A stretch of 32,000 nucleotides of DNA from Candidatus Pelagibacter sp. HTCC7211 (GTDB lineage Bacteria; Pseudomonadota; Alphaproteobacteria; Pelagibacterales; Pelagibacteraceae). Positions 1,314 to 21,010 of the stretch are shown piece by piece. The stretch is taken from NCBI RefSeq assembly GCF_000155895.1, contig NZ_DS995298.1, forward strand, positions 810,001-842,000, read 5' to 3'. The notes under the pieces are model-generated. The model was given only the letters and a program-made list of their open reading frames with translations. It did not search any database and was not told the origin of the DNA. Within the stretch, counting starts at the first letter, position 1; every line of letters starts with the position of its first letter. The translations under genes were made by a program, and so were the position numbers.

Positions 1314-1323
1314 CTAGAGGAGC

Positions 1324-1351: not shown

Positions 1352-1361
1352 TAGGTATGAT
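1333..1361 (+). promoter_or_regulatory. promoter TTTACA-N17-TATGAT, then N6-ATG for gene 1368..1850; buried inside operator copy 1
   Basis: TTTACA 1333..1338 lies in the operator spacer. TATGAT is at 1356..1361 and ATG at 1368. No Shine-Dalgarno sequence is visible. Confidence 0.55.
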
Positions 1362-1367
1362 AAAACT

Positions 1368-1850: not shown

Positions 1851-1863
1851 ATAACATTTCACT
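1836..1863. promoter_or_regulatory. operator copy 2: AGTGAAAT-N12-ATTTCACT
   Basis: Exact half-sites. The first half lies in the last codons of CDS 1368..1850. It is followed after 10 nt by TTGACG (1874..1879). Confidence 0.7.
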
Positions 1864-1900
1864 TCAATCTCAGTTGACGTAATAGAAAAGTGTGAGATTG
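1864..1900 (+). promoter_or_regulatory. -35 box TTGACG (1874..1879) bracketed by the inverted repeat CAATCTCA/TGAGATTG; promoter region of the 1941..6943 operon
   Basis: CAATCTCA 1864..1871 and TGAGATTG 1893..1900 flank the -35 box. The -10 is weak or unclear (GATTGT/ATTGTA). Unlike the other copies, the downstream gene has a leader with an AAGGA Shine-Dalgarno sequence. Confidence 0.4.
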
Positions 1901-1940
1901 TAAATTTATCAATAAAACAATCTAAAAAAAGGAAAATATA

Positions 1941-2672: not shown

Positions 2673-2968
2673 TGCAAAAACTTTCTAATTCTGAAGTTAA
2701 AGTTACAGAAGTCATTAGTTTTATTTTAGAACAATATAGAAATGAAAAAGTTAATCATGATCTTGAAGTTGCATCTGAATTAATTCTTATTGCTAGAATT
2801 CTTCATCAAAGATTTAAAATTTCAAATGGAACACAGGTTAAAGAGGATAAATCTGTTGTTTTAGCTAAAAATGAAATTCTTAAAGAAATTAAGGATGACG
2901 AATATTATGAGCTTATTAAAAACTTTATAAAAGATTATCGACAATTCAGAGATAAAAACGTAAATTAA
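2672..2968 (+). CDS. hypothetical helical protein (98 aa)
   Basis: ORF track. The ATG overlaps the stop of the upstream nuclease gene (TAATG), indicating translational coupling. Confidence 0.55.
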   Translation: MQKLSNSEVKVTEVISFILEQYRNEKVNHDLEVASELILIARILHQRFKISNGTQVKEDKSVVLAKNEILKEIKDDEYYELIKNFIKDYRQFRDKNVN

Positions 2969-2973
2969 TATTC

Positions 2974-5535: not shown

Positions 5536-5542
5536 TAAACTA

Positions 5543-5740
5543 ATGACTAAGTATGACCTTAAAAATAAGCTAAGATTACAATTAAGTGATGATATGAGGG
5601 AATTTGCGATAATAAATAATTTAACTGAACAAGATGTAATAAAAATTAGAGACAATAATTTGATACCTCAACCCCATCTAGGTTTTTTAACTGCATTATT
5701 AAAAGATAAACATTTTGAATTCTATAAAGAGGAAAAATGA
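5543..5740 (+). CDS. small hypothetical protein, possible short HTH (65 aa)
   Basis: ORF track. REFAIINNLTEQDVIKIRDNN resembles an XRE-type helix-turn-helix. The stop overlaps the next start (ATGA). Confidence 0.5.
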   Translation: MTKYDLKNKLRLQLSDDMREFAIINNLTEQDVIKIRDNNLIPQPHLGFLTALLKDKHFEFYKEEK

Positions 5741-6306
5741 CTGACGAGAATAAAATAGAAAACCTTGATGAAAGAATTAACTTAATTAAAAGTGCTTTTG
5801 AATTTTCTGAAGCAAAATGGATAGAGCCATTAGAAACAACCGAAGGAGATATTGTTGATCAAAAAATAAATACCAAAATAAGAGGAATGTATTATTTCTA
5901 TGAAAATAATTTTTATTTGGGTATTTCTTCAAAAGGAACTATTTATGATAGACACAAAACACATAAACCAAAATTTGATGTTGATTTACATCTTTTGTGG
6001 AAAAATCATTGGGACTTCTCAAAAGTTTGGCAAGAAGGTGTAAAAAAATTTTATCTAGAAAAAGATCCAGGGCCTATTCCATTTATTAAAAGAATTAATA
6101 AAGATCACAAACCTTATGCTGAAGAATTTACATTTCCAGTAATACATAAAATTAATACTGATAAAATCAAAGTTTTAATATGGAATATGGATCATTTACC
6201 TCCATGGCAAATTGAAATGATAGAAAAAATTGCAATATATAAGCTATGGCCATATTGTAATGATGAAACAAGCAGGAGGAGACAATATGAAAATAGACAT
6301 CTATAA
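5737..6306 (+). CDS. GIY-YIG domain protein (189 aa)
   Basis: GMYYFYENNFYLGISSKGTIYDRHKTH (GIY...YLG...R..H), then later EMIEKIAIYKLWPYCN (Glu/Asn of the GIY-YIG core). The GIY-YIG spacing is shorter than canonical. Confidence 0.55.
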   Translation: MTDENKIENLDERINLIKSAFEFSEAKWIEPLETTEGDIVDQKINTKIRGMYYFYENNFYLGISSKGTIYDRHKTHKPKFDVDLHLLWKNHWDFSKVWQEGVKKFYLEKDPGPIPFIKRINKDHKPYAEEFTFPVIHKINTDKIKVLIWNMDHLPPWQIEMIEKIAIYKLWPYCNDETSRRRQYENRHL

Positions 6307-6943
6307 ATCAAAATTTTTTATATTTATGGATTTTACTCAAGCAGAGATTATGGAAATGTCTTTTTCTAAAAATAGTGATTCAGAAAAAAAAATTCTTAGA
6401 GAAGGAAAAAAACATTCAAAAGAAATGACTAAATTATTTGATATAATAATTGATCCTTTTAAAAAAAATGGTCTTGACCAAACAGCTGAAAATAAAAAAC
6501 ATATATCTAGTTTAAAAAAGTATAAAAAAGAATATGAAGACATGTTTAACTACACTCCAAATCAAATGAGAAAATGGACAAGGAAGCTTTTATTGTTAAA
6601 AAAAAATATAATAGAAAAATTTATTCTTGAACAGCACCCAATAAAGAAATGCACCTATAGATATATTAATCCAATGCAAATAGGATTTTATGAACATTTT
6701 AAAATAGGACTAAATCACAAGGAGCCTCAAAAAAAAACAAAGTTTAATAAAGATATTCACTATGGACATCAAATAACAGTAGAGTTTAAAAATAATAATA
6801 AAGCAAATCAATTGAAAGATAAAAAAAAAGCTATAAATTTAAAAAATAAATTTGAAAAGTTTTATAATAAAAAATTTCTTACCCCATATAAATTTAATTT
6901 ATTTAATTTTGAAGATAAGATTGTAATTTCTAACTTGAATTAA
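6287..6943 (+). CDS. Lys-rich basic hypothetical protein (218 aa)
   Basis: The track ORF 6230..6943 was trimmed to the ATG at 6287, which follows a strong AGGAGGA (6273..6279). Overlaps the upstream gene by 20 nt. Confidence 0.55.
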   Translation: MKIDIYKSKFFIFMDFTQAEIMEMSFSKNSDSEKKILREGKKHSKEMTKLFDIIIDPFKKNGLDQTAENKKHISSLKKYKKEYEDMFNYTPNQMRKWTRKLLLLKKNIIEKFILEQHPIKKCTYRYINPMQIGFYEHFKIGLNHKEPQKKTKFNKDIHYGHQITVEFKNNNKANQLKDKKKAINLKNKFEKFYNKKFLTPYKFNLFNFEDKIVISNLN

Positions 6944-7004
6944 ATAATTTAGTCTATTTAAAAGCTATTAACCTATTTAACCAGGATAATAAACGTATTC
7001 ACAA

Positions 7005-7032
7005 AGTGAAATTTATCATTAAAAATTTCACT
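7005..7032. promoter_or_regulatory. operator copy 3: AGTGAAAT-N12-ATTTCACT
   Basis: Exact half-sites, 10 nt upstream of TTGACG 7043..7048. Confidence 0.75.
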
Positions 7033-7042
7033 CCCACCTGAG

Positions 7043-7070
7043 TTGACGGATTACACTTTTGCCTTATGAT
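7043..7070 (+). promoter_or_regulatory. promoter TTGACG-N16-TATGAT, then N6-ATG (leaderless geometry) for gene 7077
   Basis: TTGACG 7043..7048, TATGAT 7065..7070, ATG 7077. Near-identical to 8581..8608. Confidence 0.65.
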
Positions 7071-7076
7071 TAGTTT

Positions 7077-7637
7077 ATGAATACATTTAAATCTAACGAA
7101 GAAAATACTATCAGTAACTTTGTTTCAATTAACGAAGTAATTAACTATGAACCACCAAAATATATTCCTAACTGGGATGGTAGCTTTAATAAGATTAAAA
7201 GTGGTAAAAGCTCATACTTTAGACCCAATAAAGAGTTTTCTATTTTTAATATAAATATTATTAACAGTAACTCATTAAGATTAGATGCAAAATCTGAAGG
7301 TATTTATATTATCTTAAGTGAAAAGTTTAATTTCTTTTATGTTGGAAAAACCTTATCTAATATAAAACAAAGATTACACTCACACATACAAAAGCTTACC
7401 TCAACAAATAACAATAGGTATACAACACCTCTTAAATGGCAAAAGTTAGCATTTATCAGATATAATGCTTTAAAAGAAGAAAGTGTAAAGTTAGATGATC
7501 TTAAGATTAAATTTTATCATTCATCTGAATATTCAATGTGCAGTATTGATGAGCTAGAAAATAATATATATCTAAAATATAAAGCTTTATTGCCCAAATA
7601 CATATCATTGAATGATCCAAAGGCGCTTGAAAGTTAA
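7077..7637 (+). CDS. GIY-YIG nuclease domain protein (186 aa)
   Basis: Canonical GIYIILSEKFNFFYVGKTLSNIKQRLHSH (GIY-N10-YVG...R..H) followed by IDELENNIYLKY (catalytic Glu/Asn region). Confidence 0.7.
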   Translation: MNTFKSNEENTISNFVSINEVINYEPPKYIPNWDGSFNKIKSGKSSYFRPNKEFSIFNINIINSNSLRLDAKSEGIYIILSEKFNFFYVGKTLSNIKQRLHSHIQKLTSTNNNRYTTPLKWQKLAFIRYNALKEESVKLDDLKIKFYHSSEYSMCSIDELENNIYLKYKALLPKYISLNDPKALES

Positions 7638-7730
7638 AATTAATTTTAATAAGTTATTAGAAGGTAAAATATTTGCAGATAAAGATTAAGAAAAATTAAA
7701 AATACTTGATGAATGGATAGAAAAAAATAA

Positions 7731-7991
7731 ATGACAGATATATACAAAAAAATAACTGAGCTTAACTCCAAGTATGGTAATGATTCTTCTGAATTTGAAG
7801 AAGAATTAACTGAGCACCTTAAGAAGAAGTTTCCTGAACAATATAAATTATCATTGAAAGATCTTAAAAATGATGGTTCAGATGATCCTGAAATGGAAAT
7901 GACACCAGGTAGATTTGCAGATCATATTGGTGATAAAAGTGAAGAGTTATTGAAAGAATATGAAGCTATTCTAAAAAAACTTAATGGATAA
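7731..7991 (+). CDS. small acidic hypothetical protein (86 aa), paralog of 8248..8523
   Basis: ORF track. Shares EEEL..(H/K)LK..F.E.YK...(D/E)L.N...PG....I.D with the product of 8248..8523. Confidence 0.55.
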   Translation: MTDIYKKITELNSKYGNDSSEFEEELTEHLKKKFPEQYKLSLKDLKNDGSDDPEMEMTPGRFADHIGDKSEELLKEYEAILKKLNG

Positions 7992-8001
7992 AATAGGATA
8001 A

Positions 8002-8244
8002 ATGGCTTTTGAATATAAAAAACTTGGTAAACTTCAAGATCATTTAGAAGCAGAAGCAACTGACTGGATAGAAAATTATATCAAGGACCTACATGGAGTT
8101 AATGATTCGGTAGAGCTTACAAAAGAACAAATAAGTGAAATTGATAAAGCAGCTGAGGATGAGAAATTAGATATCTATGTAGGTTTAGCACTGAGAAATA
8201 TAGTTCAAGCTTGGTATGACCATAACGAACCCGATACTCTTTAA
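8002..8244 (+). CDS. small acidic hypothetical protein (80 aa)
   Basis: ORF track. Its stop is 3 nt from the stop of the convergent gene 8248..8523. Confidence 0.5.
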   Translation: MAFEYKKLGKLQDHLEAEATDWIENYIKDLHGVNDSVELTKEQISEIDKAAEDEKLDIYVGLALRNIVQAWYDHNEPDTL

Positions 8245-8247
8245 AAC

Positions 8248-8523
8248 TTAGTTTTCTAAATTATCAAACCAATCATTAACAATAGTTAAAGCATTAGCTT
8301 GATCAGCTTCAGGCAAATCTTCTATATAAGCTGATATAGTTCCAGGTGATGGTATTTCTTCTTCTGGATTATTAAGTTCATTAGCTGCAATTTTATAACT
8401 TTCACCAAAACTTTCTTTTAACTTTTTTGCTAATTCTTCCTCAAGAGATGTTGCATTGCCTGGACTGTTATTATTGTAAATTTTGTCCATTACTTCATTA
8501 ACTCTGTTACGTAAATTTCCCAT
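8248..8523 (-). CDS. small acidic hypothetical protein (91 aa), paralog of 7731..7991
   Basis: ORF track. Its upstream region runs into operator copy 4, with possible TTAATT-N16-TATATT overlapping the operator. Confidence 0.55.
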   Translation of the reverse strand: MGNLRNRVNEVMDKIYNNNSPGNATSLEEELAKKLKESFGESYKIAANELNNPEEEIPSPGTISAYIEDLPEADQANALTIVNDWFDNLEN

Positions 8524-8542
8524 ATTTAAATCTAATATATTT

Positions 8543-8570
8543 AGTGAAATTGTTCAATTAACATTTCACT
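8543..8570. promoter_or_regulatory. operator copy 4: AGTGAAAT-N12-ATTTCACT in a divergent promoter region
   Basis: Exact half-sites, 10 nt upstream of TTGACG 8581..8586. On the other strand it overlaps the putative promoter of 8248..8523. Confidence 0.75.
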
Positions 8571-8580
8571 CCTAGCTTGG

Positions 8581-8608
8581 TTGACGGATTAGGTTTCTGT
8601 TTTATGAT
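8581..8608 (+). promoter_or_regulatory. promoter TTGACG-N16-TATGAT, then N6-ATG (leaderless geometry) for gene 8615
   Basis: TTGACGGATTA...TTATGATTAGGTTATG parallels 7043..7079 almost base for base. Confidence 0.65.
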
Positions 8609-8614
8609 TAGGTT

Positions 8615-8806
8615 ATGAAAACATATAAACCTTTTAAGTTAAAAATAAAAAAAAAATCTACCTATAAACCAATACGTTTTAAAAAGCCTAAACCTTATAA
8701 AAGGGGCAGGTTATTAAAAAATGGTATTACTCAGCATATGAGAGTTTCAATTACAGGTAGACGTTATTGGACACCGATTATCACTAAAATAGATCGTCCA
8801 GACTAA
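8615..8806 (+). CDS. very basic small hypothetical protein (63 aa)
   Basis: ORF track. Lys/Arg/Pro-rich (KLKIKKKSTYKPIRFKKPKPYKRGR). First gene after operator copy 4. Confidence 0.45.
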   Translation: MKTYKPFKLKIKKKSTYKPIRFKKPKPYKRGRLLKNGITQHMRVSITGRRYWTPIITKIDRPD

Positions 8807-8824
8807 TAATTTTTTCATAAAAAA

Positions 8825-9112
8825 ATGAATAATAGTTTTAGATTCGAGACTAATTTTAATAATCCAATACTCTATGAAGTTATTTTCTTAAATGACCAAG
8901 TTACTACAATCGAATTTATAATCCGAGTTTTAAAACATATTTTCAATAAGGAACATAAACATGCTCTTAAACTTACCAGAAAAATTCATGAAGAAGGATA
9001 TGGAGTTGTTGGGTCATATATTTATGAAATTGCAGGACAGAAAGAATTAGAAACAAGTTTGATGGCAAGAGATGAAAATTTTCCTTTAAGAGTTGTTATA
9101 AAAATAAAATAA
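8825..9112 (+). CDS. clpS: ClpS-like ATP-dependent Clp protease adaptor (95 aa)
   Basis: YEVIFLNDQVTTIEFIIRVLKHIF...ALKLTRKIHEEGYGVVG...PLRVVI is colinear with the ClpS core (VILLNDDYTPMEFV..VL...F...A...M..VH..G.A.CG). Confidence 0.75.
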   Translation: MNNSFRFETNFNNPILYEVIFLNDQVTTIEFIIRVLKHIFNKEHKHALKLTRKIHEEGYGVVGSYIYEIAGQKELETSLMARDENFPLRVVIKIK

Positions 9113-9178
9113 CTTCTTTTTAAATTAAATAAAATTTAAAATAGCTGATAAATAAATTAAATATGTTATATTTGGTTT

Positions 9179-9328
9179 ATGAAAACATATAGAATTAGAG
9201 TAAGAATTGCTGGTGGAAGAATAGTTGATATTGAAATTCAAGCACCTGATGTACATGCTGCGTTAAACATGGCTAAATCACAATATGGTGAAGGCAATGT
9301 CCTAAGTGCTCCAATATTGGTAAGATAA
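9179..9328 (+). CDS. small ORF family member (49 aa), below the track size cutoff
   Basis: Manual translation: MKTYRIRVRIAGGRIVDIEIQAPDVHAALNMAKSQYGEGNVLSAPILVR. Paralog at 10951..11106; truncated copy at 13173..13262. Confidence 0.5.
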   Translation: MKTYRIRVRIAGGRIVDIEIQAPDVHAALNMAKSQYGEGNVLSAPILVR

Positions 9329-9332
9329 CAAA

Positions 9333-10184
9333 ATGAAGTTTAAAATTGTACCTACTAGACAATATGACATCAGCAAGTTCACAAAAGGTGAGCAAGAAAT
9401 TTGGGTACATGTAAATTGGGGTTATTGTGAAGCTGATGAGTTAAATGTATACAGCAGTGATTTGTTTGAAAATTGTACATCGATCGAACAAGTACAAAAA
9501 GTTGTAGATGATACAGTCAGTAAATGTAAGACAGTTACAAAAAATACCGATTTAGATAATTACGAAGAATATTGGAAAGACAGTCTGGAAACCGATGTGT
9601 ATGACAGCGCTGAATTAGGAGAAGCGCTCAAACTTGATTATGAGGTATTGCTGAATACAACATCAAGTGGTGGTACAAATTGTGAAATAATTTTTCATAA
9701 AAATGTATCAGATGAGGAATTCAACAAAGAACTAGACAATGATGGAGAAATTATCACACTCGAAGATGCCGCAAATATTTGGAGAGACGAAGTATTATCA
9801 AACGATGGTTGGTTGGAAAGCACAGATACTTATTATCAAGCACCACTTAAAGTCGTCAATGTGTTGAGTGAAAAAGAACAAGCTGAGTTAGAAGCAAGTG
9901 CAGAATATCAATTTAACAAGAACGAAAGTGCTAAACGATGGGCAAGTAAGATTAACATTTTATTCATGGACAAAAAACCAGAAACAACTGAGGTCGAAAA
10001 ACTACAAAAACAACTTAGTAATGTTAAACAAGAAGATTTAGATCTTATATTGCGTTACTATGAACAAAAACATGGTGATACGGAATTTAAAGGTGGTGGG
10101 ATTAAAAAAATAGATAATAATAAAAAAATTGAATTTTTAAAAAATTTAAAACAACAGAAAAGCAAAGAAATAAGAGTTAATTAA
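9333..10184 (+). CDS. acidic hypothetical protein (283 aa)
   Basis: ORF track. No recognisable motifs. Confidence 0.55.
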   Translation: MKFKIVPTRQYDISKFTKGEQEIWVHVNWGYCEADELNVYSSDLFENCTSIEQVQKVVDDTVSKCKTVTKNTDLDNYEEYWKDSLETDVYDSAELGEALKLDYEVLLNTTSSGGTNCEIIFHKNVSDEEFNKELDNDGEIITLEDAANIWRDEVLSNDGWLESTDTYYQAPLKVVNVLSEKEQAELEASAEYQFNKNESAKRWASKINILFMDKKPETTEVEKLQKQLSNVKQEDLDLILRYYEQKHGDTEFKGGGIKKIDNNKKIEFLKNLKQQKSKEIRVN

Positions 10185-10876: not shown

Positions 10877-10893
10877 AATGTATTGTAAGACAT

Positions 10894-10930
10894 TATAGGA
10901 TAACTTGCACCCTAGTTGCACTCAGAGATA
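10894..10930 (+). repeat. copy 0 of the TATAGGATAAC + (TTGCAC-N5-TTGCAC) + CAGAGATA junction motif
   Basis: TATAGGATAAC 10894..10904, TTGCAC 10905..10910 and 10916..10921. Homologous to 13584..13622 and 15403..15441. Confidence 0.6.
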
Positions 10931-10950
10931 CAATAATATAAAATATTTTT

Positions 10951-13583: not shown

Positions 13584-13734
13584 TATAGGATAACTTGCAC
13601 AAGACTTGTACATGAGGAGATAAAATAAAAAAAATTTACTTATTAGCCTTGTTCAATTATAAATATTAGCATAAACACTCATGAAATTCATTAATGCCCT
13701 CGTGGTGAAATTGGTAGACACAAAGGACTTAAAA
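13584..13734 (+). repeat. direct repeat DR-L: junction motif + tRNA-Leu promoter region + 5' 39 nt of tRNA-Leu
   Basis: 13639..13734 is identical by eye to 15458..15553; 13584..13638 is diverged. The tRNA part (13696..13734) stops at the anticodon loop (CTTAAAA). Confidence 0.85.
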
Positions 13735-13757
13735 GGCGAGGGATAGAAGTTAAAGTC

Positions 13758-13783
13758 AGTCCATAGTAGTCCAAGGCAGTCTA
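13758..13783 (+). repeat. three tandem AGTCCA/AGTCTA sites, 10-bp period
   Basis: AGTCCAtagtAGTCCAaggcAGTCTA, just inside the left end of the insertion. Confidence 0.45.
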
Positions 13784-13861
13784 AAAAATCCTATAAAATC
13801 TTATAACCTTAACTTAGCTTTAAATTAATATTGGATAATAAGACTTAATTAATTTGTGCAA

Positions 13862-13881
13862 ACCAGCACAAAACCAGCACA
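13862..13881 (+). repeat. tandem CAGCAC sites (11-bp period), left-end copy
   Basis: 19/20 identical to 15412..15431 at the right end of the same insertion. Confidence 0.6.
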
Positions 13882-13970
13882 TAAATAGTTAAAAAAATTT
13901 TATTTACAACCCAAACTAGAGGGATATTTGTTTTTATTTACAAATATAGTCAATCTTATAAAATGAAATT

Positions 13971-14336
13971 GTGAGTTTAAAAAAAAAGTTACTATGTAGT
14001 GTAGCAGTTGCCACTGTAGCTATACCTTTATCATTAAACAATATTACTTCTTCTGCTAAAGCTGAATCTTGCTACTCCCTTGGTAACTCAATTTATTGCA
14101 GTGATGGTTTTAGCGCCTATTCTCTTGGAAACTCGGTTTATGGTAATGATGGTTATAGTTCATACTCTTTAGGTAACTCAACTTATGGCAATGATGGTTT
14201 TAGTTCCTATTCTCTTGGAAACTCGGTTTATGGTAATGATGGTTTTAGTGCCTATTCTCTTGGAAACTCGATTTATGGTAATGATGGTTTCAGTGCCTAT
14301 TCTCTTGGAAACTCTATATATAGTTTTGGCAATTAA
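13971..14336 (+). CDS. secreted repeat protein, 5.8 copies of the 15-aa unit YSLGNS(I/V/T)YGNDG(F/Y)S(A/S) (121 aa)
   Basis: GTG start. Sec-type signal (LLCSVAVATVAIPLSLNNITSSAKA|E). The whole mature part is G/N/S/Y-rich repeats. Confidence 0.6.
   Translation: MSLKKKLLCSVAVATVAIPLSLNNITSSAKAESCYSLGNSIYCSDGFSAYSLGNSVYGNDGYSSYSLGNSTYGNDGFSSYSLGNSVYGNDGFSAYSLGNSIYGNDGFSAYSLGNSIYSFGN
14073..14333 (+). repeat. in-frame 45-bp tandem DNA repeat (about 5.8 units)
   Basis: Units such as TATTCTCTTGGAAACTCGGTTTATGGTAATGATGGTTTTAGTGCC repeat head-to-tail with a few substitutions. Confidence 0.9.
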
Positions 14337-15059
14337 TTGAAAACAATTAAAGTTGGGTGGTTTATAGACGACACACATAGAGCTAAATTTCTTTTTAATG
14401 AACCTTTTCCAGTAAAAAAAACCAGAAGAATTCCTTTATCAAAAAGAGCGGTACAGGCATGTCCTGCAGTCAATCACTTCGAAAGACGATATTTTCAAGT
14501 AAACTTTCCTTACGATCTGAGACTAAGATATGAGTTTGAAAATGAAAAACATAATTTGTATGTAATTCCAGAAGAAACAAGAATCGACGATGATTTAATT
14601 GCACAAAATATTGTTTTAATGCCTCCAAAATTTTGGAGGGATGAAAATTTTCCAACTATTCAAATAATGTGTCCTTATGTTTTTATATCTGATGATGATG
14701 TTTTTATGTCACAACTACCACCATTCTTAGACTATAAGCATAATTTATGGCCTGGTTTAGTGACAGCAGGAAGGTTTCCTATAAATATTTGGCCAAGAAT
14801 TCTTTCTTGGGGATTTGAGTGGGTCGATAAAAAAAAAGATTTAATTTTTAAAAGAGGTGACCCCTGGTTTTATGTTTTTTTTGAATCAAAAGACCCAACT
14901 GACATAATTAATTTAATAATGGCTGATAATACTGATGAATTAAAAGAATATAGGAAAGGTATAGCAGATACTGTTAAATACACTTCAAATTCTTTTGGAT
15001 TATTTGAAGAAGCAAAAAAAAGAAGGCCAAAAAAACTTTTAAAAGAAAGGAAAAAGTGA
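14337..15059 (+). CDS. hypothetical protein (240 aa), coupled to the repeat protein
   Basis: ORF track. The TTG start immediately follows the TAA of 13971..14336, so the start is uncertain. Basic C-terminal tail. Confidence 0.5.
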   Translation: MKTIKVGWFIDDTHRAKFLFNEPFPVKKTRRIPLSKRAVQACPAVNHFERRYFQVNFPYDLRLRYEFENEKHNLYVIPEETRIDDDLIAQNIVLMPPKFWRDENFPTIQIMCPYVFISDDDVFMSQLPPFLDYKHNLWPGLVTAGRFPINIWPRILSWGFEWVDKKKDLIFKRGDPWFYVFFESKDPTDIINLIMADNTDELKEYRKGIADTVKYTSNSFGLFEEAKKRRPKKLLKERKK

Positions 15060-15355
15060 TGAGTATTAAATCTAATTTCTATTATGACGCTGTTAAAGGA
15101 ATTTATTTAAATGATAATATAGTAAAATTTAATATGGTTTCAGTACCAATGTCTCAAAACGAAATTGAAGAAAAAATTACATTAATTTCTTCGTTAAGTC
15201 GTTTCGAAGCAATGGTTAATTTTTTAAGTGGAGAACTAAAAAAGATGAAATCTTTAGAAATTTCAAACAATGGAGAAAATTCTGCTGAGGAAAAAATAGA
15301 AAATGAAAAAAAACCTGAAAAAGGTAAAATTTTAGGTTCTTTTGAAAAAAAATAA
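15056..15355 (+). CDS. hypothetical protein (99 aa)
   Basis: ORF track. GTGATG overlap with the upstream gene. Confidence 0.5.
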   Translation: MMSIKSNFYYDAVKGIYLNDNIVKFNMVSVPMSQNEIEEKITLISSLSRFEAMVNFLSGELKKMKSLEISNNGENSAEEKIENEKKPEKGKILGSFEKK

Positions 15356-15402
15356 AATTATAAAAAAATTAAGATATTAATTAAATTAATCGTCCTATAA
15401 AG

Positions 15403-15553
15403 TATAGGATAACCAGCACAAGACCAGCACACAGAGATATAAAATAAAAAAAATTTACTTATAGGTCTTGTTCAATTATAAATATTAGCATAAACACTCA
15501 TGAAATTCATTAATGCCCTCGTGGTGAAATTGGTAGACACAAAGGACTTAAAA
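15403..15553 (+). repeat. direct repeat DR-R (partner of 13584..13734), continuous with intact tRNA-Leu
   Basis: See DR-L. Preceded by the perfect palindrome TCCTATA-aag-TATAGGA (15393..15409). Confidence 0.85.
15454..15482 (+). promoter_or_regulatory. candidate tRNA-Leu/nadK promoter TTTACT-N17-TATAAA
   Basis: Good hexamers and spacing about 35 nt upstream of the tRNA. The same element is duplicated at 13635..13663. Confidence 0.4.
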
Positions 15554-15600
15554 TCCTTGCCGCTTGCGGAGTGCCAGTTCGAGTCTGGCCGAGGGCACCA
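15515..15600 (+). tRNA. tRNA-Leu (anticodon UAA)
   Basis: Manual cloverleaf: acceptor GCCCTCG/CGAGGGC, anticodon loop CT-TAA-AA, long variable arm, T-loop TTCGAGT, encoded CCA. Confidence 0.9.
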
Positions 15601-15604
15601 CTAA

Positions 15605-16375
15605 ATGAGCAAACCTCAAATTATTTCTGACAAAAATAAAAAATCATCAAATATTAAAAATTTACTTTTAAAAAAAATTAAAAATTACTCATTTAAACAA
15701 AAAGATCTTGTAATTGTCATTGGTGGTGATGGCTTTATGCTTAAAACATTAAAAAAAATTAAAAATTCAAAAAAAAGATTTTATGGAATTAATTCAGGAA
15801 ATTATGGATTCTTAATGAATAAGTTTTCTTCAAAAAATATAATTAAGAATTTATCTAATGCTAATATGATTTCAATTTCACCTCTAGAAATGGTTGTAAA
15901 AAATAAGAATAATCAAACAAAAAAATCCTTAGCTATTAATGAAGTTTCAGTACTAAGACAAAGCAGACAAGCAGCATCTTTATCAATTAAACATGGTTCA
16001 AAACAAATTATTAAGAATTTAGTTTCAGATGGAGTTCTAGTATCAACACCTGCGGGGAGTACTGCTTACAATCTGTCAGTTCATGGACCTATATTAGGGT
16101 TAAACTCAAAAAAATTATCTATTGCTCCCATTAGCCCATTTAGACCTAGAAGATGGAGGGGTAAAATAGTTGGTGATAAATTAAAAATTATAATTACTAA
16201 TTTAAACACAACCAAAAGGCCAATTAGTGCTGTTGCTGATAATTTAGAAGTTAGAAATGCTAAGTCTATTTCTATTCAAACTAATAATAAAATTAAGTTC
16301 AATCTTCTTTATGACAAAAATAGAAGCTTACAAAAAAAAATTAAAATTGAACAATTAAGAAGAGAAACAAGCTAA
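15605..16375 (+). CDS. nadK: NAD(+) kinase
   Basis: VIVIGGDGFML, GINSGNYGFL, NEVSVLR and DGVLVSTPAGSTAYNLSVHGPIL are NAD kinase signatures. The ATG is 4 nt after the tRNA-Leu CCA. Confidence 0.9.
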   Translation: MSKPQIISDKNKKSSNIKNLLLKKIKNYSFKQKDLVIVIGGDGFMLKTLKKIKNSKKRFYGINSGNYGFLMNKFSSKNIIKNLSNANMISISPLEMVVKNKNNQTKKSLAINEVSVLRQSRQAASLSIKHGSKQIIKNLVSDGVLVSTPAGSTAYNLSVHGPILGLNSKKLSIAPISPFRPRRWRGKIVGDKLKIIITNLNTTKRPISAVADNLEVRNAKSISIQTNNKIKFNLLYDKNRSLQKKIKIEQLRRETS

Positions 16376-16397: not shown

Positions 16398-16443
16398 TGG
16401 TGCTTTCGCACGGATTCGAACTATAGACCTATTGATTATAAAT
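16398..16443 (-). repeat. decayed copy of the 3' end of tRNA-Thr (att-like site 1)
   Basis: TGGTGCtttCGCACGGATTCGAACtataGACCTATTGATTAtAAATt against the intact gene. All 9 differences are GC-to-AT transitions. Confidence 0.75.
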
Positions 16444-16504
16444 TAAAATTCATTTTTTTAAATAAGCATTATCTATTATCATTAATTGTTGAATATATTT
16501 AGTC

Positions 16505-16533
16505 TAGTCACACACTAATCAGAATGATAAGGT
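16505..16533 (+). promoter_or_regulatory. cassette C promoter TAGTCA-N17-TAAGGT (TG-extended), 7 nt before GTG 16541
   Basis: Positionally homologous to the cassette A and B promoters. Confidence 0.4.
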
Positions 16534-16540
16534 TTTTATT

Positions 16541-17581
16541 GTGAAAAATATTTTCATCTCATCACTTTTTTATTTATTTTTATTTTTACCATATTTAAAT
16601 TATACAAATGCTGATCACACACTTTTGCATAATTTAAATCAAAAAAAAGCAAAATCCAAAAATGAAATACAAGGATCAACATCGGCCAAAGACACTACTA
16701 AAACTCCAACTTTAGAAAAGTGTAAAAAAAAGATTGCTACTCTAGCAGTTGTTGAGCCGCAAGATTATGAGATGTTGGCATTATCACAATACTCTTTACC
16801 TTCACCAACATCATTAATAAGACTAATAGTACAACAGTCTAATTGTTTTATTGTTTTGGAAAGAGGTATTGCTATGCAAAATTTATTACAAGAAAGAACT
16901 CTTTCATCTTCAGGAGAGTTAAAGCAAGACCAAAATATGGGTAAAGGTCAAATGATTACAGCTGATTATATTTTAACACCAACGATTATATTTAAAGAAG
17001 CTAACACCGGAGGTGTGGGTGGATTATTAGGGGGATTATTACCTGGCAACGCTGGTTCTGTTGCTGGAATTATTGGAGGTAGTTTAAAATTTAGTGAGTC
17101 TCAAACCTCACTTACACTAGCTGATACAAGAAGTGGAATCCAAGTTGCTGCTGCTGCTGGTGCTTCTAAAAAATCAAGTTTTGGAGTTGTTGCAGGTTTA
17201 GGAGGAAGCTCAGCTGCAGCTGGTTTGGGTGCTTACTCAAATACTCCTGAAGGTAAAGTTGTAGCCGCAGCTTTTTTACAAACTTATAACTCTATAGTAG
17301 ATACAATTGAAGGTGATAAAGACCTAATAAGAGAAAACTCCTTACTAGAATTTAAAAAAGAAGGAGGAAAGAAAATTAAAAAAGCAAAAAAAAGTATTGT
17401 TGGAGAAGTTAGATTATCAAAAATAAATAATGTTCCAGTATTTACAAAACCTGATGGAGAAAATATTATATTTAAACTTACTTCAAAAGAAGAGGTTGTT
17501 ATATTGGGTGAAGAGGGAGATTACTATAATATAATGGGATCTGGTGGAGAAGGTTGGGTAAAAAAAATTTTAATTAAATAA
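16541..17581 (+). CDS. CsgG-family protein with Gly-rich insert and C-terminal SH3b-like domain (346 aa)
   Basis: SLIRLIVQQSNCFIVLERGIAMQNLLQERTL and ITADYILTPTIIFKEANTGGVGG parallel CsgG (AMLVTALKDSRWFIPLERQGLQNLLNERKI; ANIMVEGSIIGYESNVKSGGVGA). The C-terminus VPVFTKPDG...VVILGEEGDYYNI...GWVKK is SH3b-like. Confidence 0.6.
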   Translation: MKNIFISSLFYLFLFLPYLNYTNADHTLLHNLNQKKAKSKNEIQGSTSAKDTTKTPTLEKCKKKIATLAVVEPQDYEMLALSQYSLPSPTSLIRLIVQQSNCFIVLERGIAMQNLLQERTLSSSGELKQDQNMGKGQMITADYILTPTIIFKEANTGGVGGLLGGLLPGNAGSVAGIIGGSLKFSESQTSLTLADTRSGIQVAAAAGASKKSSFGVVAGLGGSSAAAGLGAYSNTPEGKVVAAAFLQTYNSIVDTIEGDKDLIRENSLLEFKKEGGKKIKKAKKSIVGEVRLSKINNVPVFTKPDGENIIFKLTSKEEVVILGEEGDYYNIMGSGGEGWVKKILIK

Positions 17582-17685
17582 CTAAATTATAAATAAATCC
17601 TGTAGGCAATTGCTACACACTTAATATAAATATTTATATAAAATCAAATTCTTCAAATATAATAATCTTTGATTTAATTTAATGA

Positions 17686-17736
17686 TGGTGCCCCCGCACG
17701 GATTCGAACCGCGGACCTATTGATTACAAATCAATT
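17686..17736 (-). repeat. exact copy of the 3' 51 nt of tRNA-Thr (att-like site 2)
   Basis: TGGTGCCCCCGCACGGATTCGAACCGCGGACCTATTGATTACAAATCAATT is identical to 20935..20985. Confidence 0.9.
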
Positions 17737-17790
17737 CTAAAAGTTTAAATAAACATATGTTTGCAACAATAATCTTAAAATATATTTAGC

Positions 17791-17820
17791 TTGGCAACAA
17801 TCTGGCAACAGTGATAAAGT
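17791..17820 (+). promoter_or_regulatory. cassette B promoter TTGGCA-N18-TAAAGT (TG-extended), N6-ATG; overlapped by the tandem 11-mers TGGCAACAATC/TGGCAACAGTG
   Basis: 11-mers at 17792..17813, -10 at 17815..17820, ATG at 17827. Confidence 0.45.
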
Positions 17821-17826
17821 TTTTTT

Positions 17827-18417
17827 ATGAAGCGAAATGGTTTCACATTAATAGAACTCTTAGTCGTAGTAGCAATCATCGGTATACTTGCTGCAGTGGG
17901 TGTTGTTGCTTATGATGGTTATACTAGTATTGCAAAAGATAATGCTGTTAAGGTAAATTGTAAACAAGTTGCTTCAGAGATAGGTTCGAAGTTTGGTTTT
18001 TGTGCAATGAATCCTGGATCATCTATACAACTAAAATCAATTGGTGGAAGACAAACCATAGAAAATGTTCAATGTGATAAAAATAAAACCAGTACAGGAC
18101 AGATGTTAATCAAAATAGTTAATCATTTAAATAATGAAGGTTATAAAAATCCTTATGGACATAATAGTGGTACAGAAGGTGTTCATAATGGACCCGGTGC
18201 CTATCAAGCAAGTTCTGGACTTTGGTGGCAAGATTTAATGATTAAAGGAAATAGCTATGATAAGTTATCACTAGGTAGATGTGTAGTGCAATATCATACC
18301 AATGGAGATATTGGTGTTACAGGTTTTTTTGATGCGGGAACTTTTAAAGCAAATGGTCGTGACCTTTCAGAAGCATTGCAATGGACACAATTAATCATGA
18401 CAGCTGATACTAGATGA
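17827..18417 (+). CDS. type IV pilin-like / pseudopilin protein with prepilin N-terminal motif (196 aa)
   Basis: MKRNG|FTLIELLVVVAIIGILAAVGVVAY is the canonical prepilin cleavage/methylation domain. Confidence 0.85.
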   Translation: MKRNGFTLIELLVVVAIIGILAAVGVVAYDGYTSIAKDNAVKVNCKQVASEIGSKFGFCAMNPGSSIQLKSIGGRQTIENVQCDKNKTSTGQMLIKIVNHLNNEGYKNPYGHNSGTEGVHNGPGAYQASSGLWWQDLMIKGNSYDKLSLGRCVVQYHTNGDIGVTGFFDAGTFKANGRDLSEALQWTQLIMTADTR

Positions 18418-18914
18418 AACAAAAAGGTTTCACCCTAATAGAACTCTTAGTCGTAGTTGCAATCATCGGTATTCTCGCTGCAGTAGGTGTGGTTGCTTAT
18501 AGTGGATATACGAGTGGTGCAAAGAAATCTGCCATTAAATCAAATTTTAAAACTGTAGAAAAATATACATCTGCTGAATTAATGAAGTGTCAAATAGGTC
18601 AAACAGATATTTTTATAAACTCTGGATCAAATAAAGTTAGTTGTAGTGGTGTAGATAATCCAGGTAGAACTTATACAGCAATGGTTTTTGATCCTAGTCT
18701 TAGATTCTTAAATCCAATTAATAATGGAATTGGAAATAGAGCTGACCAACATGTATTAAGAAACGATGTTTATAAAGGATCAAACATACCAGACAACATG
18801 ACTGGTTATATTTTTTTAAATTTCGGATCAACTTGGCCAGCAACTATGAGATCTTGTATTGAGGCACCTTGTTCAAATCCAAACAACATCTTAACTTCAA
18901 GTATTAATTATTAG
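18414..18914 (+). CDS. type IV pilin-like / pseudopilin protein, paralog with divergent C-terminus (166 aa)
   Basis: MKQKG|FTLIELLVVVAIIGILAAVGVVAY. ATGA overlap with the upstream pilin gene. Confidence 0.85.
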   Translation: MKQKGFTLIELLVVVAIIGILAAVGVVAYSGYTSGAKKSAIKSNFKTVEKYTSAELMKCQIGQTDIFINSGSNKVSCSGVDNPGRTYTAMVFDPSLRFLNPINNGIGNRADQHVLRNDVYKGSNIPDNMTGYIFLNFGSTWPATMRSCIEAPCSNPNNILTSSINY

Positions 18915-18918
18915 CAAC

Positions 18919-18972
18919 CGACTACTTGATTTGATAACAAACTGACAACAATCTGACAACACTTATTGTTGT
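18919..18972 (+). repeat. cassette B right end: CGACTACTTGAT box + three tandem 11-mers + an inverted copy
   Basis: CGACTACTTGAT 18919..18930. TGATAACAAAC, TGACAACAATC and TGACAACACTT span 18932..18964. ATTGTTGT is at 18965..18972. Confidence 0.65.
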
Positions 18973-19018
18973 AAGATTAGTTCCTGCATAGATATTTTAT
19001 ATGAAAAAGTAAGTGAAG

Positions 19019-19066
19019 TGGTGCCCCCGCACGGATTCGAACCGCGGACCTATTGATTACAAATCA
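19019..19066 (-). repeat. exact copy of the 3' 48 nt of tRNA-Thr (att-like site 3)
   Basis: Identical to 20935..20982. The 6 nt beyond the tRNA end (GTGAAG, 19013..19018) also match 20929..20934. Confidence 0.9.
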
Positions 19067-19124
19067 GGAATAAAACTTTAAATAGATCTTTGTTTTCAAC
19101 GAAATTCAATATTTAACTTTGATA

Positions 19125-19153
19125 TAGTCACACTAGCGTCACAGTGATAATAT
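19125..19153 (+). promoter_or_regulatory. cassette A promoter TAGTCA-N17-TAATAT (TG-extended), N6-ATG; overlapped by the tandem 11-mers
   Basis: 11-mers at 19126..19147, -10 at 19148..19153, ATG at 19160. Confidence 0.45.
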
Positions 19154-19159
19154 TTTTGT

Positions 19160-19627
19160 ATGGGAGATATTAATAAAGCACCAAATGACTTTTTCGAAAA
19201 TTGGAATAACCTTAAAAGTATGCCTTATAAAAATGTTATCGAACAATTTGTTAAAAGAAGTGATGAAAATAAAATGATGAATGCTACTCAGTTTGAAATT
19301 GAAAACTTCCCAAAGAAAGTTCGCAAAGATTTAACTGTTTCTGAAACTAATATATTTTATCACGGCTTATCAGGATTATTCAAAGATGATAAATGGTGGA
19401 AAGATGCGTCAGTTGCTGATGCTTGTACGTTTTATTTATCTTGTGCACGAAACTTTATTCCATATTTTAAAGATTATGCACAAGAGGAAGATAATCTATC
19501 TCAAAAGCAAAAAAATGAAATTTTTAGCTTATATCAAATATGTACATTATTTATTTCTTGGAACGCGATGAGAGAAAAGAATTTAAGAAAAATTATGGGT
19601 ATTAAGAAGGGTTTATTTTTAAGATGA
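19160..19627 (+). CDS. hypothetical protein (155 aa)
   Basis: ORF track. Confidence 0.55.
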   Translation: MGDINKAPNDFFENWNNLKSMPYKNVIEQFVKRSDENKMMNATQFEIENFPKKVRKDLTVSETNIFYHGLSGLFKDDKWWKDASVADACTFYLSCARNFIPYFKDYAQEEDNLSQKQKNEIFSLYQICTLFISWNAMREKNLRKIMGIKKGLFLR

Positions 19628-20076
19628 AAAAACTTTTAGGGATCGTGGTTCTTGGTTTGTTGTTGAGTGGGAATTCTTATGCAAAGATTATAAAACTACA
19701 CTGTGAATTTATAGCAGGGAATATTATTGAAAAAGTACCTCACCCTGGTCACGAGGATATTAAAAAAAATACAACGTATATTTCAATTAGTGAACACGAT
19801 ATAAAAGGCTATAATATAAAATTGGACACAACGAAGGAAGAAATTATTGAGGCTCCAAATTATAGTTCAGATGGTTCTACACGTATGTTTGGTGATGAAA
19901 TAATAGAATGGTTTGCTGCGCTTGGCTCTGGATCAGAACTTAAAGTACGCTACACATTAAATCGATATACTGGTCGATTAAGAGAATATCACAAACATTA
20001 TAAATATGGAGATACAGAAAATAACTATTGGATGGATCTTATTTATGATTGTTCAAAAGCTAAAAAATTATTTTAA
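19624..20076 (+). CDS. secreted hypothetical protein (150 aa)
   Basis: ORF track. Signal peptide LGLLLSGNSYA|K. ATGA overlap with the upstream gene. Confidence 0.55.
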   Translation: MKKLLGIVVLGLLLSGNSYAKIIKLHCEFIAGNIIEKVPHPGHEDIKKNTTYISISEHDIKGYNIKLDTTKEEIIEAPNYSSDGSTRMFGDEIIEWFAALGSGSELKVRYTLNRYTGRLREYHKHYKYGDTENNYWMDLIYDCSKAKKLF

Positions 20077-20077
20077 T

Positions 20078-20266
20078 ATGAAAAAACTTTTTGAAGATTT
20101 TAAGACACTAGATAACTCTTGGAAATTTATTATTGTAGGTAGTTTAATTGGATTGGTTGGTTATGTGATGAGTGAAACAGTTACTTATGAATTTTGGTAT
20201 TCTTTTCACTGGGTTGGTTTAGGTATAGCAATTTTTGGCTGGTTGATGGCAGCTTTTGGAAAATAA
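20078..20266 (+). CDS. small two-TM membrane protein (62 aa)
   Basis: Track ORF 20006..20266 trimmed to the ATG at 20078, just after the upstream stop. Two hydrophobic helices. Confidence 0.45.
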   Translation: MKKLFEDFKTLDNSWKFIIVGSLIGLVGYVMSETVTYEFWYSFHWVGLGIAIFGWLMAAFGK

Positions 20267-20268
20267 AA

Positions 20269-20820
20269 ATGAAAAAATTTTTAGAGATAACTATTCTTTG
20301 GCTTTTTTTAATTGGAAATTCTTATGCTATTGAAAATTGGGAAATTAAAAAAGTTATAGATAATAAATATATAGAAATATCTACAGAGGGACTTAATGTT
20401 AAAGGTGATAAATATAAGCTCCTTATGAAGCTAAATGGAAAATGTGATACTATTGAAGATGGCTTTACGTTTTATACAACAAAAAATAATCCAGGAGTTA
20501 TGCTTCTACCAGGAAAGAAAATTAAAATTGAGTCTATGGGAAAAATATTTGCATCTGAAATAAAAGCGGTTGTTCCAGTTTTAAGTGGTTCTCATCATCT
20601 AGTTTGGATAACAAATGGATTATATGAGTTTGAAGGACATACAAACTTTATAAGCCAAAGTGAAAAAAATGACGTTAAGTTACATTTTGTATTTGATGAT
20701 TTTGAGAAAGGAACAGGTTGGGAAGCAAAAGAATTTTTTAATGAAACAGAAAATACTTGGAGTCTGAAGAATTTTTCTGAAGCTGTGAAGTTGGGTCAAA
20801 AAATGTGTTTGGATAACTAA
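20269..20820 (+). CDS. secreted hypothetical protein (183 aa)
   Basis: Track ORF 20194..20820 trimmed to the ATG at 20269. Signal peptide LWLFLIGNSYA|I is similar to that of 19624..20076. Confidence 0.55.
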   Translation: MKKFLEITILWLFLIGNSYAIENWEIKKVIDNKYIEISTEGLNVKGDKYKLLMKLNGKCDTIEDGFTFYTTKNNPGVMLLPGKKIKIESMGKIFASEIKAVVPVLSGSHHLVWITNGLYEFEGHTNFISQSEKNDVKLHFVFDDFEKGTGWEAKEFFNETENTWSLKNFSEAVKLGQKMCLDN

Positions 20821-20822
20821 AA

Positions 20823-20869
20823 CGACTACTTGATCACACCACACTCACGTCACACTAACGTCACACTCA
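20823..20869 (+). repeat. cassette A right end: CGACTACTTGAT box + three tandem 11-mers
   Basis: CGACTACTTGAT 20823..20834. CACCACACTCA, CGTCACACTAA and CGTCACACTCA span 20837..20869. Confidence 0.65.
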
Positions 20870-20934
20870 TTAAAGAAATTTAATTTAAACTAAAACTTTA
20901 GAAAAAAATTTAACGTTGATTTTATTGAGTGAAG

Positions 20935-21010
20935 TGGTGCCCCCGCACGGATTCGAACCGCGGACCTATTGATTACAAATCAATTGCTCTACCAACTGAG
21001 CTACAAGGGC
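20935..21010 (-). tRNA. tRNA-Thr (anticodon UGU)
   Basis: Manual cloverleaf on the minus strand: acceptor GCCCTTG/CGGGGGC (two G-U pairs), anticodon loop TT-TGT-AA, T-loop TTCGAAT, encoded CCA. Confidence 0.9.

Follow-up and report, generated by a model that had tools for sequence, protein, structure and literature searches.

Tandem 11-bp repeats at the ends of tRNA-Thr cassettes in SAR11 as probable arm-type sites for satellite integrases

SAR11, the most abundant bacterial clade in the ocean, carries genomic islands with cassettes that are bounded by partial tRNA genes, with "no canonical mobile genetic elements" to explain them (PMC11796062). How might such cassettes move, and what part do the tandem repeats at their ends play? 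We addressed these questions at a tRNA-Thr locus of Candidatus Pelagibacter sp. HTCC7211, within a stretch of 32,000 nt (NZ_DS995298.1, 810,001–842,000) that is referred to as the window; coordinates are positions within these 32,000 nt. The initial annotation had proposed that 11-bp repeats at both ends of each cassette are arm-type recombinase sites that double as promoter operators. Three lines of sequence evidence support the arm-type interpretation: co-variation between cassette ends, integrase-bearing elements with the same attP layout, and the lambda-Int architecture of the integrase. We consider it about 75% probable that the 11-mers are arm-type sites that lambda-type (two-site-binding) tyrosine integrases of SAR11 satellites recognise through their N-terminal domain, and that these integrases would move the cassettes in trans.

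Cassettes at the tRNA-Thr gene and their 11-mers

The attachment (att) core of all cassettes at the locus corresponds to the 3' 48 nt of the tRNA-Thr gene (20935–20982). Repeats of this core, exact at 19019 and 17686 and with 9 mismatches at 16398, define three tandem cassettes, C, B and A, between the NAD kinase gene (15605–16375) and the tRNA gene:

16398–17685, + strand: cassette C, the oldest, 1288 bp; att copy with 9/48 mismatches; CsgG-like lipoprotein gene
17686–19018, + strand: cassette B, 1333 bp; exact att copy at 17686–17733; two type IV pilin genes
19019–20934, + strand: cassette A, the newest, 1916 bp; exact att copy at 19019–19066; four small open reading frames (ORFs) with no Pfam match
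20935–21010, − strand: tRNA-Thr(TGT) gene, called by ARAGORN

No integrase match was found among the ORFs of cassettes A, B and C, tblastn of the window with a satellite integrase (see below) gave no match, and none of the three encodes a recognisable DNA-binding protein. Cassettes A and B have exact 48-nt att copies at their borders; in being att-bounded and integrase-less they resemble the cis-mobilizable elements (CIMEs). Both carry tandem 11-mers at either end, and the right sets are preceded by a box, CGACTACTTGAT:

17792–17813, + strand: cassette B, left candidate arm-type pair TGGCAACAATC + TGGCAACAGTG (GGCAA-CA twice)
18919–18930, + strand: cassette B, right-end box CGACTACTTGAT, 4 nt past the stop codon
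18932–18964, + strand: cassette B, right candidate arm-type set TGATAACAAAC, TGACAACAATC, TGACAACACTT (GATAA/GACAA/GACAA-CA)
18965–18972: cassette B, inverted partial copy ATTGTTGT, after the three direct 11-mers
19126–19147, + strand: cassette A, left candidate arm-type pair aGTCACACTAG + CGTCACAGTGA (AGTCA-CA-CTAG, CGTCA-CA-GTGA)
20823–20834, + strand: cassette A, right-end box CGACTACTTGAT, 2 nt past the last stop codon
20837–20869, + strand: cassette A, right candidate arm-type set CACCACACTCA, CGTCACACTAA, CGTCACACTCA (3 x 11 bp, CACCA/CGTCA/CGTCA-CA)

The left pair of cassette A begins about 55–60 nt past the att core, and its right set ends 65 nt short of the tRNA core. The direct-plus-inverted arrangement of cassette B was also seen in satellite attP regions. 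Checked in the sequence, all repeats lie where the initial annotation had placed them, and the matches it had reported between ends hold for cassette A (16/17), cassette B (10/11) and an element at tRNA-Leu (19/20; 13862 versus 15412). The degraded copies of cassette C are present at 16510–16519 and 17615–17625, within decayed 11-mers that span approximately 16504–16521 and 17610–17625. Some details needed revision. The box, said to lie 3–5 nt after the stop codon, lies at 4 nt in B and 2 nt in A; TGCAACAAT at 17762, listed as a cassette-specific repeat, is part of a spacer common to other site classes (e.g., L035 and L043); and the left sets, described as lying between the −35 and −10 boxes, cover the −35 position and the spacer and reach into an extended −10.

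A tandem 11-mer cluster was defined as at least 9/11 identical positions with at least 7 G+C in 22 nt, and the background was estimated from 200 first-order Markov simulations. The window holds 6 such clusters, against 1.4 ± 1.3 in the simulations, and each of them is located at the end of a cassette or element. For the pattern N5-CA-[CA]-N3-N5-CA, with about 1.5 occurrences expected per strand, 15 were counted on the + strand and one on the − strand. The repeats exceed what chance would produce. Tandem Repeats Finder independently reported both right sets (A and B).

As to the setting of the locus, the SpoU-type methyltransferase adjoining tRNA-Thr is 98% identical to its counterpart in Pelagibacteraceae AG-325-C10. 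An empty site also exists, in that the NAD kinase stop codon directly abuts tRNA-Thr in some SAR11 genomes. Two such "empty" states were observed, with either the NAD kinase stop or a small conserved ORF ending in CWKLTAW before its stop codon abutting the tRNA gene (L062, L072 and L074 versus L020–L042). The pilin of cassette B was also found within series of type IV pilin genes, up to 8 in a row (L174, L175, L176), which suggests that these series are pilin cassette arrays.

Layout, matched ends and promoter of Pelagibacter cassettes

For comparison we used 80 related loci, all from Pelagibacter, from which 36 further att-bounded cassettes were extracted; layout counts are given over 38 cassettes. 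The short cassettes share a rigid left-end plan that consists of the 48-nt att, two 11-mers, TGnTAnnnT and ATG, with the 11-mer pair starting 54–58 nt past att. At the right end, the stop codon is followed by the CGACTACTTGAT box, two to five 11-mers, an A/T-rich spacer and the next att, and the 11-mer set ends 55–88 nt before the latter. The box, which is homologous to GACTCTTG of the satellites, was present in 22/38 cassettes, in most of which the stop codon lies 0–2 nt ahead of it. Its distance to att is 77, 87–88, 97–100 or 108 nt, each step corresponding to roughly one helical turn. The 11-mers follow the pattern N5-CA-C/A, and between cassettes only N5 varies.

Inverted motifs also flank the core in many cassettes, with TTAACGTTGA located about 14 nt upstream of att and TCAACGTTAA about 29 nt downstream; examples are the flank at window positions 20905–20934 and the left ends of L002 and L014. 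The conserved boxes comprise CGACTACTTGAT/GACTCTTG and the inverted TTAACGTTGA/TCAACGTTAA, none of which appears to fit the IHF consensus.

According to the initial annotation, arm-type sites should co-vary between the left and right ends of a cassette, and a lack of co-variation would speak against the proposal. The left 11-mers matched their own right ends above non-own ends. Left and right ends shared 4.24 8-mers in own pairs and 1.0 in non-own pairs (p <= 5e-5). For individual sites we used a register-free 7-mer comparison; automatic register choice fails for right sets in which CA recurs. The left 7-mer was found exactly in its own right end in 16/30 cassettes, compared with 8% for non-own ends (p = 2e-5), and within one mismatch in 25/30 cassettes, compared with 38%.

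The left end also carries a putative promoter. CA[AG]TGnTAnnnT was located at exactly +75 from att in 28/38 cassettes, and in 22 of those 28 an ATG follows 5–7 nt downstream. The corresponding elements of the window are:

17812–17829, + strand: cassette B, candidate extended −10; TG is the last TG of the left pair, TAAAGT at 17815–17820, ATG at 17827
19145–19162, + strand: cassette A, candidate extended −10; TG at 19145–6, TAATAT at 19148–53, then 6 nt, ATG at 19160

In integrase-bearing satellites the same position holds AGGAGG instead of the extended −10. The transcripts of the cassettes are probably leaderless, with the A of the ATG as the predicted transcription start. The second half of the initial proposal, namely that the left repeats may act as operators, agrees with the conserved TGnTAnnnT that follows the second left 11-mer at a fixed position. 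There is an experimental precedent in KplE1, where the arm-type sites of IntS overlap PintS in attL (PMC2951348). By analogy, the cargo is probably expressed when integrase is absent and repressed when integrase is bound.

Another, longer family of cassettes without an integrase also uses this tRNA-Thr core, as seen in L005 (reverse complement, RC, 5008–9888), L056 (RC 1251–9072) and L066 (RC 7346–9888), and its right ends also occur in L013, L038, L052, L069, L070 and L071. Its flanks differ (...GAGATTTTAG ahead of att), and its tandem 11-mers (AAATTCACTTC, AAAGACTACAA, GAATAACTACA) are element-specific and lie about 100 nt from att at both ends. When the longer cassettes L005, L056a and L066b were considered as a source of integrase, none was found; their cargo comprises helicase-like, membrane and autotransporter-like proteins. 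This family probably serves a different integrase family.

Satellite integrases, their N-terminal domain and tRNA-Leu elements

Arm-type sites call for cognate integrases. Candidates, none of which is encoded in the window, were found in satellite elements from metagenomes. When IMG/VR was scanned for exact copies of the tRNA-Thr core, the 8.9-kb contig L084 was found, in which TGATCCGCAAT CTGTCCGCAAT and an inverted copy lie upstream of the core. At 57 nt past the core, CTGTCCGCACT ATGTCCGCAAC are followed by AGGAGG and then by an ORF of 328 residues, which is a tyrosine integrase (PF00589, E = 1.1e-18; phrog_1, 3.7e-53). The contig also encodes an AAA_25 primase/helicase-like gene and a small terminase subunit, and this combination of genes identifies it as a satellite similar to phage-inducible chromosomal islands (PICIs), virion-encapsidated integrative mobile elements (VEIMEs) and tycheposons. 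Pelagibacter has been described before as a host of VEIMEs (PMC9618062).

The L084 integrase had 3947 homologues at E <= 1e-10. In IMG/VR, a scan for its close relatives returned only the query contig itself; an alignment-based metagenome scan yielded 80 metagenome loci with the same attP plan, many of them on contigs of 6–7 kb, and the satellites measure 6–9 kb. Their attP spans about 250 bp and begins with the box (GACTCTTG), two direct sites and one inverted site, and a spacer; it continues with a tRNA-half core of about 48 nt, a spacer of about 55–70 nt, two direct sites and the integrase start codon. Satellites and cassettes alike have two to five sites upstream of the 48-nt core and two downstream, all unlike the core in sequence. 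Both attP arms match exactly in 25/31 unique satellite regions, compared with 6.6% of non-own pairs, and 3 of the 6 failures stem from the box-finder choosing the wrong anchor. The integrase loci comprise at least 16 site classes, and 65/137 cassette N5 words are among the 29 words of the integrase loci, where 2.8% would be expected by chance. In L093, L106 and L133 a cassette-type right end precedes an integrase locus, which indicates that satellites and cassettes share arrays, and one genome cassette (L003) keeps an integrase remnant of 74 residues at the expected place. One 17.1-kb contig (L160/L161, JGI24003J15210_10000477) contains two copies of the same satellite integrase locus, 6966 bp apart, which represent either a tandem or concatemeric satellite or the assembly of a circle.

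The relation between integrase and site was analyzed by Mantel tests over 41 unique combinations of the two. The N5 of the site correlated with integrase residues 3–17 (r = 0.34, p = 1e-4), and equally so in a partial test controlling for the catalytic domain (r = 0.34, p = 1e-4), while no correlation with the catalytic domain was seen (r = 0.08, p = 0.056). Representative pairs of integrase residues 5–17 and site N5 are:

RKKREKWCVEIRR: GGTCG
RTKNGNWHVEIRR: GTCCG
SKKFGKWYVQIRR: ATACA
TKKSGKWLVQIRR: AGTCA
YKRMGKWGVWIRR: TGCAA
YKKRGKWGVWIRR: GACGA / GACAA
RKRFGKWQCQIRR: CGACA

At least two cores serve the integrase family: besides tRNA-Thr there is one interpreted as the 3' half of tRNA-Asn(GTT). 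Identical combinations of N-terminus and site were found with both cores, and the right arm beyond the swapped Asn-like core matches too. Amino acid identities between integrases, grouped by site and core, were:

Same site, different core (n = 24): residues 3–17, 84%; core-binding domain, 68.5%; catalytic domain, 77.4%
Different site, same core: residues 3–17, 59.6%; core-binding domain, 73.1%; catalytic domain, 80.5%

Residues 12, 8, 5 and 14 are among the most variable of the integrase (entropy 3.1, 2.7, 2.5 and 2.1; mean 0.67) and are interspersed with the invariant K10, W11, I15, R16 and R17. These correlative data suggest that the arm-site sequence would be specified by the N-terminal domain independently of core recognition.

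The family profile of the integrase matches P2 Int (5c6k) and lambda Int. Residues 71–236 of lambda Int align to residues 55–222 of the query, leaving about 54 extra N-terminal residues. In an AlphaFold2 model (pLDDT 81; about 88 for the N-terminal domain), these residues form strands at 3–7, 10–17 and 20–27 and a helix at 30–46. The arm-binding domains of lambda and Tn916 have this fold type of three strands and a helix. The best Foldseek matches include full-length lambda Int, with an alignment about 60 columns longer than that against Int(75-356). The integrase is of lambda-Int architecture, with an N-terminal domain that the model predicts to be separate.

Cognate classes could be assigned to cassettes A and B of the window. 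For cassette A these are the AGTCA integrases of L116, L125, L135 and L154 (N-terminus ..SGKWLVQIRR); for cassette B (GGCAA/GACAA-CA plus inverted copy) it is the class of L162 (GACGA/GACAA), with TGCAA as a near neighbour.

Homologues of the integrase with approximately 24–39% identity occur in prophages, several of them G+C-rich, with two tandem 11-mers directly upstream of int (L210, L236, L196, L240, L335, L314–L318, L321, L323 and L327). Examples are AGTCACACTCC AGTCACACCGG and TTGCCACACTC TTGCCACACTG. In most cases a tRNA or tRNA fragment lies upstream, and in L335 the same 11-mer word occurs again across the core.

Related repeats are found in the window at tRNA-Leu(TAA), where the att is the 5' half of the tRNA gene (15515–15553), copied at 13696–13734:

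10893–10950, + strand: third tRNA-Leu-type right-end module, tataggataac + ACTTGCACCCT AGTTGCACTCA + cagagata..., with no att after it
13584–13734, + strand: right end of an older tRNA-Leu element, ACTTG-CA / ACTTG-TA at 13592–13613, with displaced tRNA-Leu 5' half
13735–15553, + strand: tRNA-Leu(TAA) element, left pair ACCAG-CA x2 at 13860–13881, right pair at 15411–15432

The module at 10893–10950 points to an older array that lost its att by deletion. In the tRNA-Leu element, the first ORF contains 5.6 tandem 45-bp units (13971–14336) that encode a 15-residue repeat, YSLGNSxYGNDGFSA; it has no Pfam match. Over 45 nt, the 5' half of tRNA-Leu(TAA) (15512–15556) is identical to the attP core of pelagiphage HTVC105P (L081 2501–2545). 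A viral scan for the tRNA-Leu arms (ACCAGCACANNACCAGCACA) was discarded: the match inspected, L184, lies inside a large ORF, and 0/5 contigs encode an integrase homologue. The pattern GTCACACTNNNGTCACA gave more than 120 matches and was too unspecific, yet it led to distant integrase homologues with the same layout.

Cassette movement, competing explanations and known systems

The proteins of cassettes A and B recur, identical in sequence, beside other neighbours in other assemblies, as in the following loci:

L169: cassette between native flank and tRNA
L170: TGGCA-class cassette on the left
L177: GGTAG-class cassette on the left

This variety of neighbours fits independent movement of the cassettes. 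A Logan contig of 1946 nt (L167) was considered as an excised circle, in that it contains cassette A exactly with a 30-nt terminal overlap inside att; it was rejected since a break of the k=31 assembly graph within the 48-nt repeat yields the same contig. The junction of att and left flank of cassette A had no match in IMG/VR. A pelagiphage integrase was also rejected as helper: the attP flanks of HTVC105P lack tandem N5-CA 11-mers. The tRNA-Thr core is absent from all GenBank pelagiphages.

From the architecture we infer the following mechanism. The N-terminal domain of the integrase would bind the phased 11-mers on both arms while its C-terminal domains bind the core, as in lambda Int, with the 11-bp spacing of the sites corresponding to one helical turn. 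The invariant K10, W11, R16 and R17 would read CA(C), and the hypervariable residues 5, 8, 12 and 14 would read N5. Cassettes A, B and C are probably integrase-less satellite derivatives in which arms and core were kept and cargo replaced the satellite genes, and successive integrations at tRNA-Thr would have stacked them, from the decaying C to the recent A. Each att of the array would then have the right arm of a cassette on one side and the left arm of the following cassette on the other, and an integrase of a given class would form an excision complex only on two att copies with inward-facing arms of that class, i.e., on the two ends of one cassette. Under such a restriction, the ends of a cassette must match each other and may differ from those of its neighbours. 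A cassette would be moved only when a matching satellite supplies its integrase in trans. The predicted junction of a cassette A circle would read ...CGTCACACTCATTAAAG...TTGAGTGAAG + att + GGAATAAAACTTT.... At the left end, the pair covers the −35 and spacer of the extended −10, such that bound integrase would repress the cargo genes.

Several observations weigh against this account. In 12 cassettes with a left end of "type a", left and right ends mostly mismatch (2/12 exact; 14/18 outside this type). The "type a" left end also occurs without an att on its left, and beside a fixed CBS-like gene, and it looks like an old resident end that was joined to later cargo through a deletion. The first repeat of each right-hand set is degenerate. 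In cassette A the sites have CGTCA in place of the AGTCA of the integrase loci. No excisionase was found in the satellites by Pfam or PHROGs, and no excised circular cassette was seen among assemblies and IMG/VR. The window has no integrase, and the only trace among the 80 genome loci is the 74-residue remnant of L003; given this near-absence, the cassettes may currently be immobile. A generic sigma-70 scan gave no excess over shuffles in this A+T-rich region (24 found, 23.5 expected), which leaves the promoter argument to cross-cassette conservation. Finally, the left sites lie 12–35 bp from integrase codons 1–17, and part of the co-variation may be linkage; the matched right arm across the swapped core and the focusing of variation on four residues make plain linkage less likely as the sole cause.

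The same near-absence of integrases at this locus, together with the report of one integrase and no canonical mobile elements in SAR11 (PMC11796062), the decay and mismatched ends of cassette C and the "type a" left ends, and the lack of circular forms would also be accounted for if the 11-mers were inherited relics. Decayed satellite ends would then have been fused to cargo and would match by descent, with no present role beyond the promoter part. We consider this unlikely, since the flanks of the cassettes (GTGATAAAGT..ATG, CGACTACTTGAT) differ from those of the satellites (ACATAGGAGG, TTGACTCTTG) and occur with many site classes, one flank family carrying different classes. The sites of the AGTCA and CGACA classes, moreover, are about 3 times more conserved than the spacers (pi 0.04 vs 0.12). 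Among the cassettes in general, the box-to-att distance shifts by steps of about one helical turn with the phasing preserved, and the same cassettes are found beside different neighbours.

Two further explanations assign the repeats to another process altogether. They might be transcriptional elements only, bound by a host or cassette transcription factor or by RNA polymerase and playing no part in recombination; the left pair does overlap the conserved extended −10, and many 11-mers resemble a −35 hexamer (TTGGCA, TGACAA). The right sets, however, follow the last stop codon with no gene after them, the sites lie on both sides of the att core at fixed distances and co-vary with the integrase N-terminal domain, distant prophages keep them beside int, and the cassettes encode no recognisable DNA-binding protein, all of which makes a purely transcriptional role very improbable. 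We give still less credence to replication iterons, bound by a primase/helicase-type initiator of the satellites and kept by cassettes for replication in trans after excision. Tandem element-specific repeats are typical of iterons, and the satellites do carry the AAA_25 primase/helicase-like gene, but the repeats are split into two sets around a recombination core, abut the int start codon rather than a replication gene, and track the integrase N-terminus. They are also kept by prophages of 25–50 kb with the same integrase family, in which different replication machinery would be expected.

If the 11-mers are arm-type sites read in trans, integrase-less cassettes could be moved by a matching integrase from elsewhere. 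Through sequence architecture the cassettes are linked to Pelagibacter-associated satellite integrases (VEIMEs, PMC9618062), which would offer a concrete route of gene flow. A wider reading, which we hold tentatively and would put at somewhat short of even odds, is that SAR11, long regarded as free of mobile elements, runs an integron-like cassette economy by means of satellites. Cargo such as pilins, lipoproteins and defence-like genes, each with its own promoter, would form a pool sorted among at least 16 classes by a five-base "arm code" that about four residues read, and arrays at tRNA-Thr and other tRNA genes would be edited cassette by cassette. The matched series of N-terminal domains and arm sites could be used to learn how the domain reads DNA, and possibly to build integrases without cross-reaction. 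Leaderless expression of the cargo would also be expected from the fixed arrangement of att, arms, extended −10 and ATG.

Arm-type sites, heterobivalent integrases, the overlap of attL and promoter, accretion arrays and marine satellites are already known. In the literature searched, we found no description of the SAR11 arm layout, of a multi-class code of N-terminal domain and site, or of integrase-less full-arm cassettes fused to a leaderless promoter, and no paper that combines "Pelagibacter" and "arm-type". Nor are these features mentioned in the accessible parts of the tycheposon preprint or of the papers on VEIMEs and SAR11 islands.

With lambda, P2 and HP1 (lambda P1, P2, P'1-3), the SAR11 systems share the extra N-terminal domain of three strands and a helix, direct repeats on both sides of the core and an attP of about 250 bp; in lambda, both arms are needed for one intasome (PMC2951348, PMC9791396). 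In contrast to these phages, the SAR11 sites are strictly phased at 11 bp and adjoin the int start. Unlike in lambda, a single integrase family has split into at least 16 classes of site and N-terminal domain, and complete arm sets also occur on integrase-less elements. In the SAR11 elements, neither IHF nor Xis sites or genes were identified. The KplE1 (HK620-type) IntS/TorI system is similar in its tRNA insertion, in an int gene transcribed away from att and in arm-type P' sites over the promoter. IntS represses its own gene, and the same is predicted for 61.5% of tRNA-associated integrase genes (PMC2951348), whereas the promoter under the cassette arms would drive cargo rather than int and has an extended −10 with an ATG 5–7 nt downstream.

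CIMEs are likewise att-bounded and integrase-less, lie in tandem with related elements and are thought to be mobilised by a related integrase (PMC5704250, PMC7563491), and the SAR11 cassettes resemble such accretion of CIMEs and integrative and conjugative elements in all three structural respects. Their candidate helpers are phage-satellite-like rather than conjugative, and the cassettes are 0.6–8 kb long and packed ORF to ORF, with their own predicted promoter and many arm-site classes. Prochlorococcus tycheposons, VEIMEs and PICI-like elements share with the SAR11 satellites a tRNA-targeting tyrosine recombinase, a replication module and a small terminase subunit, and they also form tandem arrays with partial tRNAs and degraded remnants in genomic islands. 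Arm-type sites, a code of site and N-terminal domain, and integrase-less full-arm cassettes are not described in the accessible parts of the publications on them. The likeness to integron cassettes lies in small, mostly single-operon cargo without a recombinase of its own and in an array with an age gradient. The array at tRNA-Thr has no attC-type borders and no adjoining integrase; unlike integrons, it is bordered by direct 48-nt tRNA fragments with duplex arm sites in place of folded attC, and instead of relying on a resident IntI and Pc, each cassette would bring its own promoter.

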